DNA of 64,000 nucleotides, from the sequence record KY963424; one strand, 5' to 3'. The notes below the pieces were generated by a model. It had not been told where the DNA came from, searched no databases, and worked only from the letters and a program-made list of their open reading frames with translations. Within the stretch, counting starts at the first letter, position 1, and each line of letters begins with the position of its first letter. The translations under genes and the position numbers were made by a program. The DNA is from Shigella phage SSP1. Shown here one piece after another: positions 2,052-54,690 of this stretch.

Positions 2052-4108
2052 TGATTTCGAATAATGCACCAGCCAAAATGGTCTTAAATAGTATAATGAC
2101 TGGATATACAATGGCATATGTCCAGCACTCTATATATACTGACTATGACGTTATTGGCAGATCTTTTTGGTTAAAGACAGGAGAAAGTGTAGATAGACGT
2201 GATTATACTGGTATAGATACTTTCTTCGTAATGATTAATAATCTGACCCCTTCAACCTCTTATGAGATTCAAGGGGCTTTCTACGACTCTATTATTGATT
2301 CTGAACTGTTAGAGGCTAAGATTGGTATCAATCTCTCTAATGAGACTAACTTTAGGACAAAAGAGAAGCCAACAATTGTTGCAGCAAGATCTGAATCAGA
2401 ACCTGTGGATGTTGGGGTAGGTGCACCGATAGTTATCGTAGAAACAACTGGTGAAGCAAGCTACTGTACTATTGAGTTAAAAAGTACAGCTACTGAAGAC
2501 AGTCCTTGGACTAAGTATTACATTGGTGCTTTAGGTTCTACTATTAAATTTGGTGGAGTTCCTATCGGAGATTACAAGATCAGAATATCTGGTCAAGTAA
2601 CTATGCCTGATGGTGTTACAGTTGATTCTTCTGGGTATTATGAATTCCCTAATATTTTAACTGTAGCGTATAATTTTGTTCCTCCTACTGCACCTATCAA
2701 TATTGTTTTTAAAGCTGCACGAATTGCTGATGGTAAAGAACGCTATGATGTTAGAATTGAGTGGGATTGGGAACGCGGTGGCGGTGCTAATGTTCGTGAG
2801 TTCTTGGTTACTTATATAAACTCTGAAGAATACGGTAAGACTGGCTGGGCTAAAGCCCAAAAGATAAACGTTGGTGCTGCTAGAGCTGCAACAATTATAT
2901 CCTTTCCATGGAAAGTTGAGCATACTTTTAAGGTATCATCAATTGCCTGGGGACCAAATAAGCAGGATATAACAGAATCAGCTCCTGTAACATTTATATT
3001 GAATGAAGATACTCCTCTAGACAACAGCTTTGTCAATGAGACGGGTATTGATGTTAACTATGCCTTTATTAAAGGCAGCATGAAAGATGGAGAAATCTGG
3101 AGACAGACATTCTTAATCGATGCAGCTACTGGTGCTATTAACATCGGTCTGCTAGATGAAGAGGGAAAAGCACCTATTTCTTTTGATCCTATAAACCGTG
3201 TTGTTAACGTTGATGGTAAAGTAATTACTAGAGATATTAATGCTGCGAATTTTATCATGACTAACTTATCCGGTAAGGATAATCCAGCAATTTATACTCA
3301 AGGTAAATCTTGGGGAGATAATAACTCCGGTATTTGGATGGGCATGGATAATACCTCTGCCAAAGCTAAGTTAGACATTGGTAATGCCACACAGTGGATT
3401 CGTTATGATGGTGATGTGCTACGTATCTCTAGTGGTGTAGTAATTGGGACACCAAATGGCGATGTAGATATTGGTACTGGGATGCAGGGTAAACAAACAG
3501 TATTTGTTTATAAGTTAGCAACATCTCTACCCGCTAAACCACTAGAACAAGATTACCCGCCTCCTGGTTGGTCAAAAACTCCACCTAACCGTACAGATAT
3601 GACACAAAATATCTATGCAACTACGGGTACACTTGATCCGGTTACTAACAAACTTCTTGAAGGTACTAGCTGGTCTGATGTAGTTCAGTGGAGTGGTACT
3701 GAAGGTACTATTGGTGCAGATGGTCAAAGGGGGCCTGGCATGTATTCCTTAGGTATTCCAGGTCTTGGAGGCTGGGATGATGGACAAGCTAATGCCTTCT
3801 TCCAGAATAACTTTGGTAGTCCACCAGTTAGATATGATGTATTGACTGAGTTTAATAGTAATGCTCCGCAATCTGCATTTACTCGTCAATGGAATGGTTC
3901 CGGTTGGATTAACCCTGCAATGGTTCTTCATGGCAACATGATTGTTAATGGAACTGTGACTGCTGATAAGATTGTGGCAGGAAATGCCTTCTTATCACAA
4001 ATCGGTGTTAATATAATCTATGATAGAAATGCTGCGTTATCAGGGAACCCTGAAGCATACTATAAGATGAAGATAGACCTAAATAGTGGGTATATCCATA
4101 TAAGGTAA
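2051..4108 (+). CDS. Tail straight-fibre/baseplate protein, pb4-like (about 686 aa)
   Basis: ATG overlaps upstream stop (TAATG); size and position match T5 pb4 as recalled; a GTG/ATG at 2036 is an alternative start. Confidence 0.55.
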
Positions 4109-48371: not shown

Positions 48372-49010
48372 ATGACTACTCGTATTTCTAAAACTCGCGC
48401 TCTGGCAACTATTAAATCTCTGGAAGCTAAAATCCGTAAAGCTACTGAACAGCAGCTTCTGATCGCTGTTGGTGAAGGTAAGGATAAAAACCAGGTTGTA
48501 GTTGGCGCTGCAATCGAAGTAGCTGATCTGTCTACTCGTATTAAGGCAGATTTCCAATCTCTCCTGGATATGATGTCCCAGCGTGATCGTATCAAAGCCG
48601 CTCTGATTAAGAGCAATGCGGAAACAGTAGTTGAGATTGGTTCTCGTAAGATGACTGTTGCGGAAGCAATTGAAGCTAAGCGTTCTATGGAACTTAAAGC
48701 CCAACTGCTGGCTAATATGCGTAAGCAGTTCCATGCCGCTACGGTTAAGTTTAATACGCAGAAAGCACAGTTTGATGCTAAATATGAGCGTTTGCAGGAT
48801 AGCATGGCTACCCGCGATAAGAAAACTTCCGAAGATGAAGTTAAAATGCAGCTCAACCTGCTGGAACTCAAGAATACTCCATTCTTGATTGATCCGCTGG
48901 AACTGGAAAAGCTGATTAAGCAGCATGATGAGGAATATCAGGACTTTGCAACAAATGTTGACTTTGTTCTGTCCGAGTCTAACGCCTCTACCTTCATTGA
49001 AGTAGAGTAA
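48372..49010 (+). CDS. Hypothetical coiled-coil protein (212 aa)
   Basis: AAGGAAACAAATAATG RBS; heptad-like charged pattern. Confidence 0.55.
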   Translation: MTTRISKTRALATIKSLEAKIRKATEQQLLIAVGEGKDKNQVVVGAAIEVADLSTRIKADFQSLLDMMSQRDRIKAALIKSNAETVVEIGSRKMTVAEAIEAKRSMELKAQLLANMRKQFHAATVKFNTQKAQFDAKYERLQDSMATRDKKTSEDEVKMQLNLLELKNTPFLIDPLELEKLIKQHDEEYQDFATNVDFVLSESNASTFIEVE

Positions 49011-49452: not shown

Positions 49453-49770
49453 ATGACTTTTCATATTTTGATTGATGATGTGCGTAATCTTCACGGAATG
49501 GACATTATCATTCGAACCCCAGAAGCCGCTGTAGAGTTTCTGAATAAAACTGATACCACAGGCCATTTCGTTTATATGGATAATGACTTGGCTGTAGATG
49601 GTATGGAAGGTTATCAAATTCTTCGTTTACTCTTAGAATTTGGGCAGAGACCAAAGAAAGTGGTACTAGTAACCTCGAACCCAGTAGCTAAGCAAAATAT
49701 GCGTAATGATTTGCTTGACTTAGGGTATAAAGAAAATCCCAATCGTGTTGAATATGATTGGCAGGAGTAA
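49453..49770 (+). CDS. Small protein with receiver (CheY-like) domain-like pattern
   Basis: HILIDDV...FVYMDNDLAVDGMEGYQILRLL...VVLVTSNP resembles an orphan REC fold (acidic pocket, phospho-Asp position, T/S, hydrophobic beta strands); tentative. Confidence 0.4.
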   Translation: MTFHILIDDVRNLHGMDIIIRTPEAAVEFLNKTDTTGHFVYMDNDLAVDGMEGYQILRLLLEFGQRPKKVVLVTSNPVAKQNMRNDLLDLGYKENPNRVEYDWQE

Positions 49771-49775
49771 AAAGA

Positions 49776-50225
49776 ATGAAGGCAGCTTTGCTTTTAGTAG
49801 CTGCCCTTACCTTCAGCTTTAGTAGTCAGGCATCGCACGATGCAAAAGAAATAGATTGCATTGCTAAAAATATCTATTTCGAGAGTCGTGGTGAGGGCAT
49901 AAAGGGAATGACGGCGATTGCACATGTTACTAAAAACCGTGTAAACTCCGGTAAATTCCCAGATTCCTACTGTAAAGTAGTATATCAGTCTAACCAGTTC
50001 TCTTGGGTATCTAAGAGACCAAAAGTTGATAAAACTGATGAGGCTTGGCAAACCGCTAAGAATTTAGCTAGAGTGATATACTACGTTGATTTACCACAAG
50101 ATCCTACATATGGAGCACTATACTTCCATAGTGGTAAAGATAAACCTTACTGGACAAAGAAGTTTAAGAAAACAACTAAGATTAAGGGGCATACGTTTTA
50201 TAAACCTGTTGTCACTAAAACTTAA
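49776..50225 (+). CDS. Secreted cell-wall hydrolase, SleB-like (Hydrolase_2)
   Basis: N-terminal signal peptide MKAALLLVAALTFSFSSQA; IAKNIYFESRGEG...AIAHVTKNR core similar to SleB/CwlJ-type hydrolases. Confidence 0.55.
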   Translation: MKAALLLVAALTFSFSSQASHDAKEIDCIAKNIYFESRGEGIKGMTAIAHVTKNRVNSGKFPDSYCKVVYQSNQFSWVSKRPKVDKTDEAWQTAKNLARVIYYVDLPQDPTYGALYFHSGKDKPYWTKKFKKTTKIKGHTFYKPVVTKT

Positions 50226-51754: not shown

Positions 51755-51827
51755 AACGGGGTGTAGTCTAAGGGAGAGGCAGGAGTCTTCTAAATTCCTT
51801 TATGCAGGTTCGAATCCTGTATGAGCA
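51755..51827 (+). ncRNA. tRNA-like 3' element (T-arm GCAGG-TTCGAAT-CCTGT) at end of ORF-less region
   Basis: Canonical T-loop; no complementary 5' acceptor strand found by eye. Confidence 0.3.
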
Positions 51828-52734
51828 AAAATTGATGCGTAATATCAAACGTTGGGGTATTGGTGCTGCAGTTGGTTTGGTAGGTTTAGTTCTGGCCCTT
51901 AACTCCTATACTGTTGTTCAAGACGGTACTGTTAAAACCCAGACTTTCCTGGGTAAAGTTGACCCTAGCCCAGTATTACCCGGCTTTCATATTGTAAATC
52001 CTTTTGCTTCTTTCGATACTTTTAGTACTAAAGATATTGCTCTAAAATTAGATAAACTTCAGGTTCCTAGTCAGGATAAGTTTAAATCCACTGTTGACCT
52101 GACTGTTATGTTGCAGTTTGATGGTTCTAAGGCACCGATTAACCGTATTAATGCAGGTACTCAGGATCAATCGTTAGACAAATATGTAACTGAAAAATTA
52201 CTGTCTACTATTCGTGAGTTTGGTAAATCTGTACCTAAAGCACAAGATTTGTTTGATGCTAAAATTCAGGCTCAATTGCAAACTGCAATTCAACAGGAAG
52301 TTGAAGAGTATGCACGCCCATATGGTTACACAGTTAAGCAGGTGTTCCTTCAGGATATTACTTTGCCACCGGTAATCATGGAACAGGTACAGAATACCAA
52401 AGTTCGTGAAGAGCAGGTTAATGCTGCTAAAGCTGAATTAGCTCGTGTTGAACAGGAAGCACAGCAAAAAGTTAAACAAGCAGAAGCAGATCGTGAAGCC
52501 CGCAACAACCAAGCTATTGCCAATGAACGTGACGCAGATGCTAAACTATACGCAGCTAAGAAAGAAGCTGAAGCTAACGCCGCATTACAACGTACCATTA
52601 CTCCTGAGATGATTCGCTGGAAGCAACTGGAAGTCGAAATGATTCGTGCTCAGAAATATCAAGGTGGTGTACCCCAGACTGTGGTAGGTACTGGCTACGA
52701 TGGTCAAATGATCATGGATATGCGTAATAAATAA
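51802..52734 (+). CDS. SPFH/band-7 domain membrane protein (prohibitin/HflC-like)
   Basis: N-terminal TM helix WGIGAAVGLVGLVLAL, SPFH-like core, C-terminal Ala/Glu/Gln-rich coiled coil; likely start at ATG 51835 (MRNIKRW); no clear SD. Confidence 0.65.
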   Translation: MQVRILYEQKLMRNIKRWGIGAAVGLVGLVLALNSYTVVQDGTVKTQTFLGKVDPSPVLPGFHIVNPFASFDTFSTKDIALKLDKLQVPSQDKFKSTVDLTVMLQFDGSKAPINRINAGTQDQSLDKYVTEKLLSTIREFGKSVPKAQDLFDAKIQAQLQTAIQQEVEEYARPYGYTVKQVFLQDITLPPVIMEQVQNTKVREEQVNAAKAELARVEQEAQQKVKQAEADREARNNQAIANERDADAKLYAAKKEAEANAALQRTITPEMIRWKQLEVEMIRAQKYQGGVPQTVVGTGYDGQMIMDMRNK

Positions 52735-52759
52735 TACCCGCATGTAACATCTGAAGTAA

Positions 52760-52796
52760 GCCCTGCGTTCCCTGGAGAGCGCAGGGTTTTTCTGTA
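52760..52796 (+). terminator. Intrinsic terminator after SPFH gene
   Basis: CCCTGCG...CGCAGGG hairpin followed by TTTTTCTG. Confidence 0.65.
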
Positions 52797-52812
52797 TTTA
52801 AGATAAAAGAAA

Positions 52813-52850
52813 AGCCCCTAAGTCTTTCGACTAGGGGCTTTATTGTTTGG
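52813..52850. terminator. Second hairpin, potentially bidirectional terminator
   Basis: AGCCCCTAG-TCTTTCGA-CTAGGGGCT flanked by A-run upstream and TTATTGTTT downstream. Confidence 0.55.
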
Positions 52851-53058: not shown

Positions 53059-53475
53059 TTAGGAGTTATTACCACCATTTTGAGCTTTTGCAACTTGGCT
53101 TTGGCAGAAGCTATTAAACTTACCCATAAGTGATACAAGCTGTTTCCCATCCTCTGTCTTTGCGAAGTCTTCGAAAAGGGCTAGTACTGCCTGTCCTTCC
53201 GCAGAAACCTGCGGTTGTTGGGTTTGTTGCTGAACTTGCTGCTGCGGCACCTGTTGCTGCATTTGTTGAGGCATTTGCGACTGCCCGCTCATTTGCTGCA
53301 TCATTTGCATAGGACTCACACTTCCAGGGTTTTGCTGGAGTTGTTGCTGCATCTGTTGCGCTTCTGCTAAACGCTGTTGCAATTGTTGTAAGTAGGGGTT
53401 ATCCAGACCCGGAACGGGCTGCTGGGAGCCCATATTTTGATTAAGTCCGTTATTTACAAAACCATATTTACTCAT
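53059..53475 (-). CDS. Gln-rich low-complexity protein (138 aa)
   Basis: About 30% Gln (QQLQQRLAEAQQMQQQLQQ...QQMQQQVPQQQVQQQTQQPQ); RBS GGAGGAG upstream; second gene of minus-strand island. Confidence 0.6.
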   Translation of the reverse strand: MSKYGFVNNGLNQNMGSQQPVPGLDNPYLQQLQQRLAEAQQMQQQLQQNPGSVSPMQMMQQMSGQSQMPQQMQQQVPQQQVQQQTQQPQVSAEGQAVLALFEDFAKTEDGKQLVSLMGKFNSFCQSQVAKAQNGGNNS

Positions 53476-53496
53476 AATGGGCTCCTCCCCTTAATA

Positions 53497-54483
53497 TTAA
53501 GCCGGCAGTTTAGCCTGCAGACCAGCCAGAGTCTGAGTGATAGCACCAAGACTTAAAGCGATTTGATTAATTACCTGACCGTTAGCACCGCTACCCGCAG
53601 CGATTGCTTCACGTAGGCGACATGCGTCTAACTCATCCTGGATACGCGCAGTAGTTACACCAGCTATCGCAGTCTGAAGTTCACAGCAACATTCAGCGAT
53701 CTGACGTTCCAAAGAGTTCTGGTTAGCACACATCTGAGCCTGAACAGCGGCAAACTGGTTATTAGTTTGTAAAGTCTGCTGGAAAGCGATCTGTGCAGAA
53801 TCAAACTTATCTTGTGCACGAGCTATCTGATTAGCTGCGAAAGATTGATCAATCTGGCGAGAAAGATCGAACTGACCCTGAATAACGTTGCGAGTTTCCT
53901 GGCAGATTTGATTAGACAGATTAGCACCCGTACCATAGATCGTAGTTAGTACAGACTGAGTATCACGGCTCTGGTTTTGGGATGTCTGGCTAAAACCATT
54001 GTTAACTGCGCTTAAAACAGCTCCAGTACCCTGGTTAGCTTCTGTACGAGTAGTGTTAATAGCTGCTAGAATACTAGCGGTATCTTGGTTCTGAAGTACT
54101 GCATCAACTGCGGTACCTTCACCAACTACACCACGTCCACCGAATCCACCGAAACCACCGAATCCGCCTGTTAATAGAGCACCGATTAGGATAGCTCCGA
54201 ATAGCCCCATACCTTCACCACCGAAAGCACCTGCGTTTGCTGGGTAACCACCCAGTAGGCCAGGGAAGCCACTAGTGAATACGTTTACTGGTTCTTGCAT
54301 TTTATGTTTTCCATATTTATGACAATGTTCATCATCGTCATCTTCTTCATCGTCGTGTTCGCGATGTTTCTCTTCGTAGGCTCTGACCTTCTCCCACTTT
54401 TTCTTATCTGATTCCTCGTGACGGTGCAGTTCTGCTGCAACGCTAGCGACGGTCTCAGGACTCTTAGCTACTTCTTCTGTCAT
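53497..54483 (-). CDS. Membrane protein with acidic/His-rich N-terminus, glycine-zipper TM (GGFGGFGGFGG) and Gln/Asn/Thr-rich C-terminal domain
   Basis: Start MTEEVAK with AGGAGGTG RBS (ORF track extends to 54543); MGLFGAILIGALLTGGFGGFGGFGG hydrophobic Gly-zipper; long Q/N/A/T-rich tail. Confidence 0.6.
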   Translation of the reverse strand: MTEEVAKSPETVASVAAELHRHEESDKKKWEKVRAYEEKHREHDDEEDDDDEHCHKYGKHKMQEPVNVFTSGFPGLLGGYPANAGAFGGEGMGLFGAILIGALLTGGFGGFGGFGGRGVVGEGTAVDAVLQNQDTASILAAINTTRTEANQGTGAVLSAVNNGFSQTSQNQSRDTQSVLTTIYGTGANLSNQICQETRNVIQGQFDLSRQIDQSFAANQIARAQDKFDSAQIAFQQTLQTNNQFAAVQAQMCANQNSLERQIAECCCELQTAIAGVTTARIQDELDACRLREAIAAGSGANGQVINQIALSLGAITQTLAGLQAKLPA

Positions 54484-54545
54484 TTTTTGACACCTCCTAG
54501 TATATAGAAAATGTGTGTCTCTTTGATCACTCATCCATAACATAT

Positions 54546-54574
54546 ACTTTACACTACCCCAGCGAAAATGTCAA
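54546..54574 (-). promoter_or_regulatory. Host-like sigma70 promoter for minus-strand island (TTGACA-17-TAAAGT)
   Basis: Reverse complement CCCTTGACATTTTCGCTGGGGTAGTGTAAAGT; differs from the phage early-promoter family. Confidence 0.5.
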
Positions 54575-54690
54575 GGGGTCTTTAAAAATTGCCCCCGGAT
54601 TTTTAGTGGGGTCACAAATTTTGGTCCTCACCACTTATCTGCTACCCTTAAGTGCCCTATGATTTTCCTCTAAAAAGTTAAAAAATTTGA

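Follow-up and report, generated by a model that had tools for sequence, protein, structure and literature searches.

The window analysed here, 64,000 nucleotides (nt) of DNA from Shigella phage SSP1 (sequence record KY963424), carries a minus-strand operon of three genes, here called gA, gB, and gC, with its own promoter and its own terminator (open reading frame list and sequence; Table 1). The region is 98–99% identical to many Tequintavirus genomes, placing the window in a T5-like phage. When phage records were searched with tblastn, gA was found in 221, gB in 221, and gC in 220; this strict co-occurrence shows that gA-gB-gC is one conserved unit. The original prediction, made from the letters alone, had described a two-gene unit at 53059–54580. 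Its open reading frames (ORFs) of 328 and 138 amino acids (aa) were confirmed at their coordinates, but the unit had been cut short of a third gene, gC. We tentatively propose, at somewhat less than an even chance, that the three proteins form an inner-membrane-tethered, thiol- or metal-dependent complex and that this autonomous, mobile accessory operon acts as a conditional host-interaction module.

In T5 the same locus is listed as the hypothetical genes T5.077–079, of unknown function in every record. The T5 record AY734508 annotates the same three ORFs (T5p075–T5p077), a "promoter P12", and ter1, and the region lies inside the st0 deletion. To the existing annotation our analysis adds the third gene in the unit, the exact boundaries, a deletion scar in a relative, the mobility of the triad across phage families, and the definition of a large protein family carrying a CCC motif. 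The element itself is of an ordinary kind, an accessory cassette, built from undescribed proteins.

The operon and its control signals

The promoter had been predicted correctly: it is the P12 of T5, and its conservation across Tequintavirus and Epseptimavirus is 100%. As a class, promoter-like hits were not enriched in the region (7 found versus 10 expected in the scan), so the support for this promoter comes from its conservation and from the T5 annotation, not from the scan. The claim that it is host-like, unlike the early promoters of the phage, did not hold: the early promoters of T5 are sigma-70 promoters without exception, this one simply with a consensus −35 hexamer.

An in-frame ATG at 54543, 3 nt downstream of the −10 hexamer, extends the gA ORF to 348 aa. 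This start is probably not used, since transcription is likely to begin at it or downstream of it. The T5 annotation agrees with the ATG at 54483, which follows an AGGAGG ribosome binding site (RBS). The 5′ leader folds no better than shuffled sequences (z = −0.9).

At the other end of the operon, the hairpin terminator that had been predicted was borne out by its fold (−20.7 kcal/mol, z = −4.36 versus shuffles). Its stem changes are compensatory among phages, e.g., CCCC/GGGG versus CCAC/GTGG, and it is part of the "bidirectional transcription terminator ter1" annotated in T5 (AY734508). With its own promoter and terminator, and with plus-strand SPFH and Toprim genes on its flanks, the unit is independently transcribed against its surroundings, as had been claimed. 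The terminator of the SPFH gene is kept in relatives that lack the triad. A T5 nick ("major DNA single-chain interruption", L002 6066..6067) falls between the convergent terminators, at about window position 52780 and near the SPFH terminator hairpin.

Table 1. Features of the operon, of its flanks, and of a related gene cluster in other phages (window coordinates unless a locus is named).
Feature	Coordinates	Strand	Basis or remark
Sigma-70 promoter, TTGACA-17-TAAAGT	54574..54546	−	scan score 10/12; P12 annotated in T5 AY734508
5′ untranslated leader, ~55 nt, AGGAGG RBS	54484..54539	−	sequence; near-invariant in six diverged phages
gA, T5.077/T5p075, phrog_8119, 328 aa	54483..53497	−	ORF; ATG at 54483 behind AGGAGG RBS
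gB, T5.078/T5p076, phrog_7894, 138 aa	53475..53059	−	ORF
gC, T5.079/T5p077, 64 aa	53049..52855	−	ORF with AAGGAGG RBS
Intrinsic terminator, 13-bp stem, GAAA loop, U-run	~52841..52803	−	fold and compensatory stem changes
Convergent terminator of the SPFH gene	52758..52789	+	terminator scan; cassette boundary, outside the cassette
SPFH gene, converging on the operon	51802..52734	+	
Toprim gene, phrog_849, 189 aa	54699..55268	+	
phrog_9288 clusters	L020 4839..6693; L021 3068..5114; L022 3545..5365		

The claim that GC content and codon usage differ from the flanks stood in part. The GC content of the cassette is 0.46 versus 0.394 for the window, which places it in the top 0.8% of equal-sized windows. 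At third codon positions, the GC content (GC3) of gB and gC is 0.43–0.45, whereas that of gA is 0.347 and ordinary for the window; the GC excess of gA is thus due to its Ala/Gly-rich composition. Only gB and gC look compositionally foreign. The island had also been placed inside the tRNA cluster. It lies at the edge of the cluster, because all 18 tRNAs called by ARAGORN are at ≥55290. Relatives annotate a tRNA-Arg (or "tRNA-OTHER") just 5′ of the SPFH gene (L001 1979..2050; window ~51700), and ARAGORN called none before 55290.

Distribution, mobility, and loss of the triad

The ordered triad was found in unrelated genetic backgrounds. KPP23 and RSP, Pseudomonas siphophages of high GC content, have it at the start of the early arm, where it diverges from the terminase gene. 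It is also present in an N4-like contig carrying a virion RNA polymerase and in two divergent phage contigs of ~110 kb. In the metagenomic contigs L011–L013 the triad is again oriented against its neighbours, and in two of them the cassette carries a similar sigma-70 promoter: that of L011 reads TTGACA-17-TAGAGT, and that of L012 is near-identical to the promoter in the window (AAAGACCCCTTGACATTTT...TGTAAAGTATA), though the L012 gA is only 41% identical to the gA of the window. These occurrences show that the cassette has been transferred between phage families. A tblastn search of the phage records with the N4-like gA (P0025) returned the same 221 records only, with no cultured N4-like phage carrying the triad, and an IMG/VR scan with a gA profile returned T5-like isolates only.

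Presence and absence were mapped over T5-like genomes with a query running from SPFH to Toprim: 445 phage records match, and only ~210–221 of them hold the triad, which is thus missing from about half of the T5-like genomes. In NBEco002 (L014) the SPFH terminator is followed directly by the RBS of the Toprim gene, a clean and larger absence. The Salmonella phage Epseptimavirus rutana (L015 ~2480..2560) keeps the operon terminator and ~45 nt of the 3′ end of gC; its sequence joins window ~52886 to ~54640, in the region upstream of the neighbouring plus-strand promoter. The junction is a deletion scar. The triad is therefore ancestral in at least some lineages and has been lost repeatedly, in nature and in laboratory stocks.

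Pairwise ratios of nonsynonymous to synonymous divergence (dN/dS) among six Tequintavirus and Epseptimavirus genomes were 0.06–0.20 for gA, 0.02–0.35 for gB, and 0–0.40 for gC (few substitutions). Where they are retained, the three genes are thereby shown to be under purifying selection, and the low ratios of gA and gB argue against ORFs that are not translated. Such a pattern of presence, absence, and selection is typical of conditionally useful accessory genes. Identity to T5 is 81% for gA, ~97% for gB, and 100% for gC. Synonymous divergence from T5 (dS) is 0.50 for gA and 0.08–0.10 for gB and gC, a difference that implies a recombination breakpoint between gA and gB; the cassette is thus itself mosaic.

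The triad is dispensable on laboratory E. coli. In a genome-wide CRISPRi-ART knock-down, T5.077–079 all scored "Not Fit", i.e., silencing them was harmless to T5 (PMC11879866, supplements 8 and 16), and the knock-down had no effect on K-12. The ~8 kb deletions of the tRNA-rich region (TRR) in T5n and SP15m remove the triad, and among the tested defence panel these phages are notably more sensitive only to retron-Eco2 and retron-Eco7, an effect that was mapped to ORF75 and tRNA-Tyr (PMC11555353). The Toprim neighbour of the operon, usually annotated as "DNA primase", is the orthologue of this SP15 ORF75 (T5.076, "Rad"), an anti-retron protein that was shown experimentally to let T5-like phages evade both retrons (PMC11555353). 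The sequenced stock of BF23 has a ~4 kb deletion of T5 ORF071–075 including Rad, which its authors called a mobile anti-defence locus (PMC10644984). By its position this deletion should also remove the triad, which the paper does not name.

The three proteins and the CCC-helix family

Composition and hydropathy of gA (K+R 24, D+E 39, H 7, Cys 7) agree with the acidic/His-rich N-terminus, single hydrophobic segment, and CCC triplet that had been described for it. The protein consists of an N-terminal helix, an acidic/His-rich linker, an MQEPVNVF motif, a glycine-zipper membrane segment (~residues 91–115), and a helical domain of ~200 aa. The hydrophobic segment MGLFGAILIGALLTGGFGGFGGFGG scores 1.72 (Kyte-Doolittle 19-mer) and includes a 25-residue charge-free run; most likely it is the only membrane segment of gA. 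In the helical domain, C252 and the ECCCE triplet C265–C267 are invariant. The C-terminal tail, NGQVINQIA.SLG..TQ.LA.LQ (NGQVINQIAVSLGAITQTLAALQAK), is also invariant, and the last 25 residues hardly differ even where overall protein identity is 41%, which points to a putative conserved binding partner. Thus, the best-conserved parts of gA are the CCC domain and the tail, not the membrane segment alone. Hydrophobic periodicity peaks at 3.64–3.72 residues, not 3.5, and exceeds shuffles only for residues 126–230; segments 126–328 and 230–328 were not above shuffle controls. The helix type would resemble amphipathic repeats of 11 residues more closely than the heptads of a canonical coiled coil.

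With 27.5% Gln, gB came close to the ~30% predicted. An N-terminal helix (YLQQLQQ.L.EAQ) is joined by a variable Gln/Pro-rich linker to a 45-aa C-terminal domain (LFE.FA.TEDGKQLV...GKFN.FCQS) whose Cys is invariant across triads. A word-indexed protein search with this domain returned nothing, seemingly a limit of the tool, as T5.078 was expected in the database. The original prediction had offered a disordered scaffold or condensate-forming pair, in which Gln-rich gB and Gly/Phe-rich gA would drive phase separation, and the Gln content of gB fits this idea, as do the GLFG and GGFGG repeats of gA. We rejected it as hardly credible, because the Gln-rich middle is the variable part of gB, varying in length, shortened or Pro-rich elsewhere (Pro-rich in the N4-like and L011 versions), whereas the N-terminal helix and the C-terminal domain around it are conserved, with invariant ordered segments. 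The Gly/Phe segment of gA, for its part, is embedded in the charge-free run, as is typical of a membrane helix.

The smallest protein, gC, has 8 Cys, arranged as four CC pairs, and 8 Pro. It always begins with MCC (MCCRKSVSCC in the window). It is at least 80% identical in all 220 records with a tblastn match. No feature is annotated over it in most GenBank records, among them the full T5 record AY587007 and the four Epseptimavirus records inspected, and gC is thus a conserved small gene that most annotations omit. Counterparts with an MCC start, a second CC pair, and an aromatic residue at or near the end directly follow gB in KPP23/RSP, L011, L012, and L013. Its best hydropathy 19-mer scores 0.85; it has no lipobox, no signal peptide, and no hydrophobic signal region. 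Both gB and gC lack a signal peptide, a membrane segment, and an export signal.

Vicinal pairs of Cys typically serve as ligands of soft metals, as in MerT, MerA, Cox17, and metallothioneins. The triad might accordingly be a metal-handling module in which gA, through its His-rich/acidic N-terminus and CCC helix, and gC bind, sequester, or deliver Zn, Ni, Cu(I), or an Fe-S cluster. The four vicinal pairs of gC and the invariant cysteines in all three proteins would suit such a role, and the His/Asp/Glu-rich segment of gA expands to HHYHHHHHEH in Epseptimavirus variants and to poly-His in the relatives P0057 and P0095. Yet this stretch, although compatible with metal binding, varies more than any other part of gA, and several triads, those of L011, L012, and RSP among them, lack it. 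The three proteins match no metal-binding family in Pfam or NCBIfam, and there is no evident reason why a dispensable mobile cassette should handle metals. We regard metal handling as quite unlikely to be the function in its own right; it overlaps the thiol- or metal-dependent complex that we favour rather than excluding it.

Neither predicted protein had been recognised by the original prediction, and our searches agreed. Against Pfam, NCBIfam, PADLOC, and PDB, nothing significant was found for gA, gB, or gC, and PHROGs gave only families of unknown function: phrog_8119 for gA (2.7e-204 over residues 1–328) and phrog_7894 for gB (2.4e-80 over residues 1–138), with gC a singleton that matches no PHROG family. 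PDB profile searches with the gA alignment and with a CCC-domain alignment gave nothing significant; the best PDB match for gA was the glycine-zipper lipoprotein SlyB (E = 0.3, not significant). Pfam glycine-zipper models did not match gA at E ≤ 1. None of the three proteins matched spanins in PHROGs or Pfam, or the models of known anti-phage defence and exclusion systems in PADLOC and NCBIfam; homology to a characterised structural or lysis protein was looked for and not found, nor was any to holins or toxins. Literature searches on the T5 locus tags, phage CCC motifs, and T5 exclusion genes returned no functional study of T5.077–079.

We built a profile from gA and searched 1.84 billion cluster representatives at a threshold of E ≤ 1e-3, which returned 103 of them (a word-indexed protein search with a CCC-domain profile returned 9 proteins only). 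When these hits and an earlier homologue set were examined together, 85 of 112 proteins contained the Cys triplet, in the motif [LIM][AES][ED]CCC[ES].K followed ~20 residues later by R[LI][RK]D.L (typically AECCCE.K...RLRD.L; in gA itself, IAECCCELQ...ARIQDELD). An N-terminal glycine-zipper membrane segment is present in 28 of the 85; the other 57 scored non-hydrophobic, and their N-termini did not look signal-peptide-like by eye. Since a second group of proteins shares only the N-terminal half of gA (His-rich region, EPVNVF motif, and glycine zipper), gA looks like a fusion of two modules. No Pfam or PDB entry matches the CCC family, and the related PHROGs 9288, 16490, and 9415 are all of unknown function.

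Members of the family occur in diverse viral settings. One homologue is in a crAss-like phage, a CCC-only homologue lies between a CHAP endolysin gene and an Rz-like spanin gene, and another CCC gene lies between the MuF and capsid genes of a PB1/E217-like head module (L008 5779..7823). In L008 a Tad2-like (anti-Thoeris) gene is found two genes before the CCC gene. In Edwardsiella phage eiAU, Seuratvirus STP-SP5, and the T1-like Klebsiella phage P-K7R, a protein with both glycine zipper and CCC (phrog_9288) is encoded directly after the tail-fibre gene and heads a conserved cluster of four to five genes with phrog_9157 (His-rich, 106–121 aa), phrog_8329, and phrog_7239, whose functions are unknown; in STP-SP5 the cluster ends with a 69-aa MCGNACC...F peptide (phrog_25697), reminiscent of gC. 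Scanning IMG/VR with the CCC motif gave 51 loci (L042–L092), among them ~18 metagenome-assembled genomes of giant viruses and several more contigs of 200–470 kb. The CCC proteins of giant viruses and large contigs (AECCCE.KE, 280–600 aa) are non-membrane proteins with C-terminal tails rich in PPC (PPCPPPC), RS, or RGG (e.g., L045, L046, L049, L058, and L074); no MCC-type peptides were found near the giant-virus genes. A tblastn search of cultured phages with a soluble CCC protein (P0047) gave no match. The CCC helix appears to be a virus-wide and so far undescribed domain, spanning several tailed-phage families and giant viruses.

A possible function and comparison with known systems

We propose that host sigma-70 RNA polymerase transcribes the operon during infection, probably early, because P12 lies in the early gene region of T5. 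One glycine-zipper helix would tether gA in the inner membrane, its long helical CCC domain facing the cytoplasm and oligomerising there. Both gB and gC would be cytoplasmic partners of gA, all three acting together at the cytoplasmic face of the membrane, and the cysteines of gA (C252 and CCC), gB (FCQ), and gC (MCC/CC) may form a shared thiol site, either a soft metal or cluster site or a set of reactive thiols. The complex would be a conditional device, for counter-defence, exclusion of competitor phages, or membrane protection, kept where hosts select for it and lost elsewhere. A conditional host-interaction role is favoured by the genomic behaviour of the triad and its position next to the anti-retron gene Rad; a role in exclusion or in other host interaction is possible.

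The orientation of gA is suggested by its charges. Of the 53 members of the family that have a membrane segment, 49 carry D/E before the uncharged run and 39 carry Arg after it; by the positive-inside rule, the CCC domain at the C-terminal end would then lie on the cytoplasmic side. This placement agrees with the many family members that are not membrane proteins and with gB and gC having no export signals.

The opposite topology would make the triad a periplasm-facing envelope device: gA would be N-in/C-out, its CCC and C252 cysteines oxidised to disulfides by DsbA, and the complex would block superinfecting DNA, as Imm, Sp, or SieA do, or alter lysis in the manner of a spanin. A long N-terminal domain without a signal peptide is the usual layout of a type II signal anchor, and the long helical ectodomain with conserved cysteines recalls the i-spanin Rz. 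Exclusion genes such as cor and llp are often placed after the tail-fibre gene, the very position of the membrane-segment-bearing phrog_9288 homologues in the three phages named above. The CCC-only homologue between endolysin and spanin would also fit, and the giant-virus homologues would suit disulfide-linked virion proteins. We nevertheless judge this arrangement unlikely. Neither gB nor gC has an export signal and gC has no lipobox; the flanking charges point the opposite way in 39–49 of the 53 members; most of the family scored non-hydrophobic and is seemingly free of signal peptides; and no PHROG or Pfam match links the triad to spanins, holins, or known exclusion proteins. Moreover, T5-like phages already have Rz-like spanins (PMC11664485) and the Llp exclusion lipoprotein.

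A membrane-active toxin or lysis-timing factor had been another suggestion of the original prediction; here the glycine-zipper oligomer of gA would form a pore or a depolarising lesion. T5-like phages have a separate holin, endolysin, and Rz-like spanins, with the spanins next to holin and endolysin elsewhere in the genome (PMC11664485), and the holin of T5 is homologous to T4 gp t (PMC12894885). A PHROG scan of the window from 46 to 51 kb found a second endolysin and no spanins, the location of the spanins being that given in PMC11664485. The second endolysin gene (49758..50222, plus strand, phrog_938) is in the early region, ~3 kb from the operon and away from the main lysis genes. Another early-region ORF (48372..49007, plus strand) matches phrog_1491 "tail fiber protein" (4.7e-82), away from the late structural genes. 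The proximity of this endolysin, the one homologue inside a lysis cassette, and the likeness of the glycine zipper to pore-forming and membrane-remodelling proteins, with SlyB as the best, non-significant PDB match, are what a toxin has in its favour. An early-active promoter would however deliver the toxin long before lysis, phage fitness was unchanged by knock-down and by deletion, holins are much smaller than gA, conservation is strongest in the soluble CCC domain and tail, and gC has neither lipobox nor signal peptide. A toxin or lysis role is, in our view, improbable, and we rejected it.

Several points also count against the inner-membrane complex that we favour. No homology assigns a function to gA, gB, or gC. 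The early timing of P12 is judged probable from its position; physical association of the three proteins is suggested by their co-inheritance, and the orientation of gA by its flanking charges. Export of the 90-residue, lysine-rich N-terminal domain of gA would be difficult in the absence of a signal peptide, gA might instead be N-in/C-out or a hairpin, and the odd-numbered cysteine cluster would also suit periplasmic disulfide cross-linking. The AlphaFold2 model of gA (15-sequence alignment) is poor, with a mean predicted local distance difference test score of 50, and it predicts only helix 11–44, a short membrane helix, and long helices 134–167, 175–296, and 302–324. Counter-defence activity of the triad was not seen in the retron rescue, in which only fragments F6 and F8 of the TRR restored growth on retrons (PMC11555353). 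The most specific form of our proposal, a mobile phage system whose shared-cysteine metal/thiol complex works at the inner membrane against some function of the host or of a competitor and whose core CCC helix is a virus-wide domain, we consider doubtful as a whole.

T5 is a model phage in which T5.077–079 have been "hypothetical" for twenty years, and the widely used st0-type deletion stocks lack the triad, so that standard experiments are blind to its role. Retention under purifying selection in T5-like, N4-like, and Pseudomonas phages, together with repeated loss in culture, marks it as a likely conditional module for host interaction that is well suited to screening on natural hosts and against defence panels. 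Should the cysteines form a joint metal/thiol site, the triad would represent a chemistry new to phage effectors.

How does the triad compare with known systems? The T5 genes T5.077–079 are orthologous, with the same gene order, P12, ter1, and SPFH and Toprim neighbours. Nothing essential differs: the gA of the window is a diverged allele, and gB and gC are near-identical. The Rz/Rz1 spanins likewise pair a membrane-anchored helical Cys protein with a small, downstream Pro/Cys-rich partner. However, ~90 residues precede the membrane segment of gA, gC lacks both signal peptide and lipobox, a third gene stands between the two, the promoter is in the early gene region, and the operon is outside the lysis cassette; with no spanin profile match and separate Rz-like spanins in T5-like phages, a spanin was rejected. 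Holins are small (<~150 aa), accompany an endolysin, and are needed for lysis, whereas gA has 328 aa, is predicted to be mostly soluble helix, and is dispensable. A GxxxG-rich hydrophobic segment is shared with SlyB, Gly-zipper_Omp, and Rick_17kDa_Anti. Membership of these families was rejected, as gA has no lipoprotein signal, its matches to them are not significant, and the remainder of the protein is unrelated. The 11-residue repeats of apolipoproteins and LEA proteins are approached in periodicity by gA residues 126–230; one distant family member (P0066) matches Pfam Apolipoprotein at 3e-10, below threshold (40.5 versus a 90-bit cut-off).

The T5 tRNA-rich anti-defence island is closer. 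The triad adjoins Rad, is deleted along with it in T5n and SP15m (and, by position, in BF23), and shows the same accessory, mobile behaviour. The difference is that retron rescue came from ORF75 and tRNA-Tyr only and that the triad has no homology to known anti-defence proteins. Phage morons of the lambdoid type share still other features: their own sigma-70 promoter and terminator, atypical composition, orientation against the neighbours, presence or absence between close relatives, dispensability, and sharing with unrelated phages. Expression of classical morons comes from repressed prophages, and the lysogen gains from it. The carriers of the cassette, in contrast, are strictly virulent, being T5-like Demerecviridae and an N4-like contig with a virion RNA polymerase. 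The likeness to morons is thus one of organisation and not of life-style, and for the triad we propose expression in the lytic cycle.

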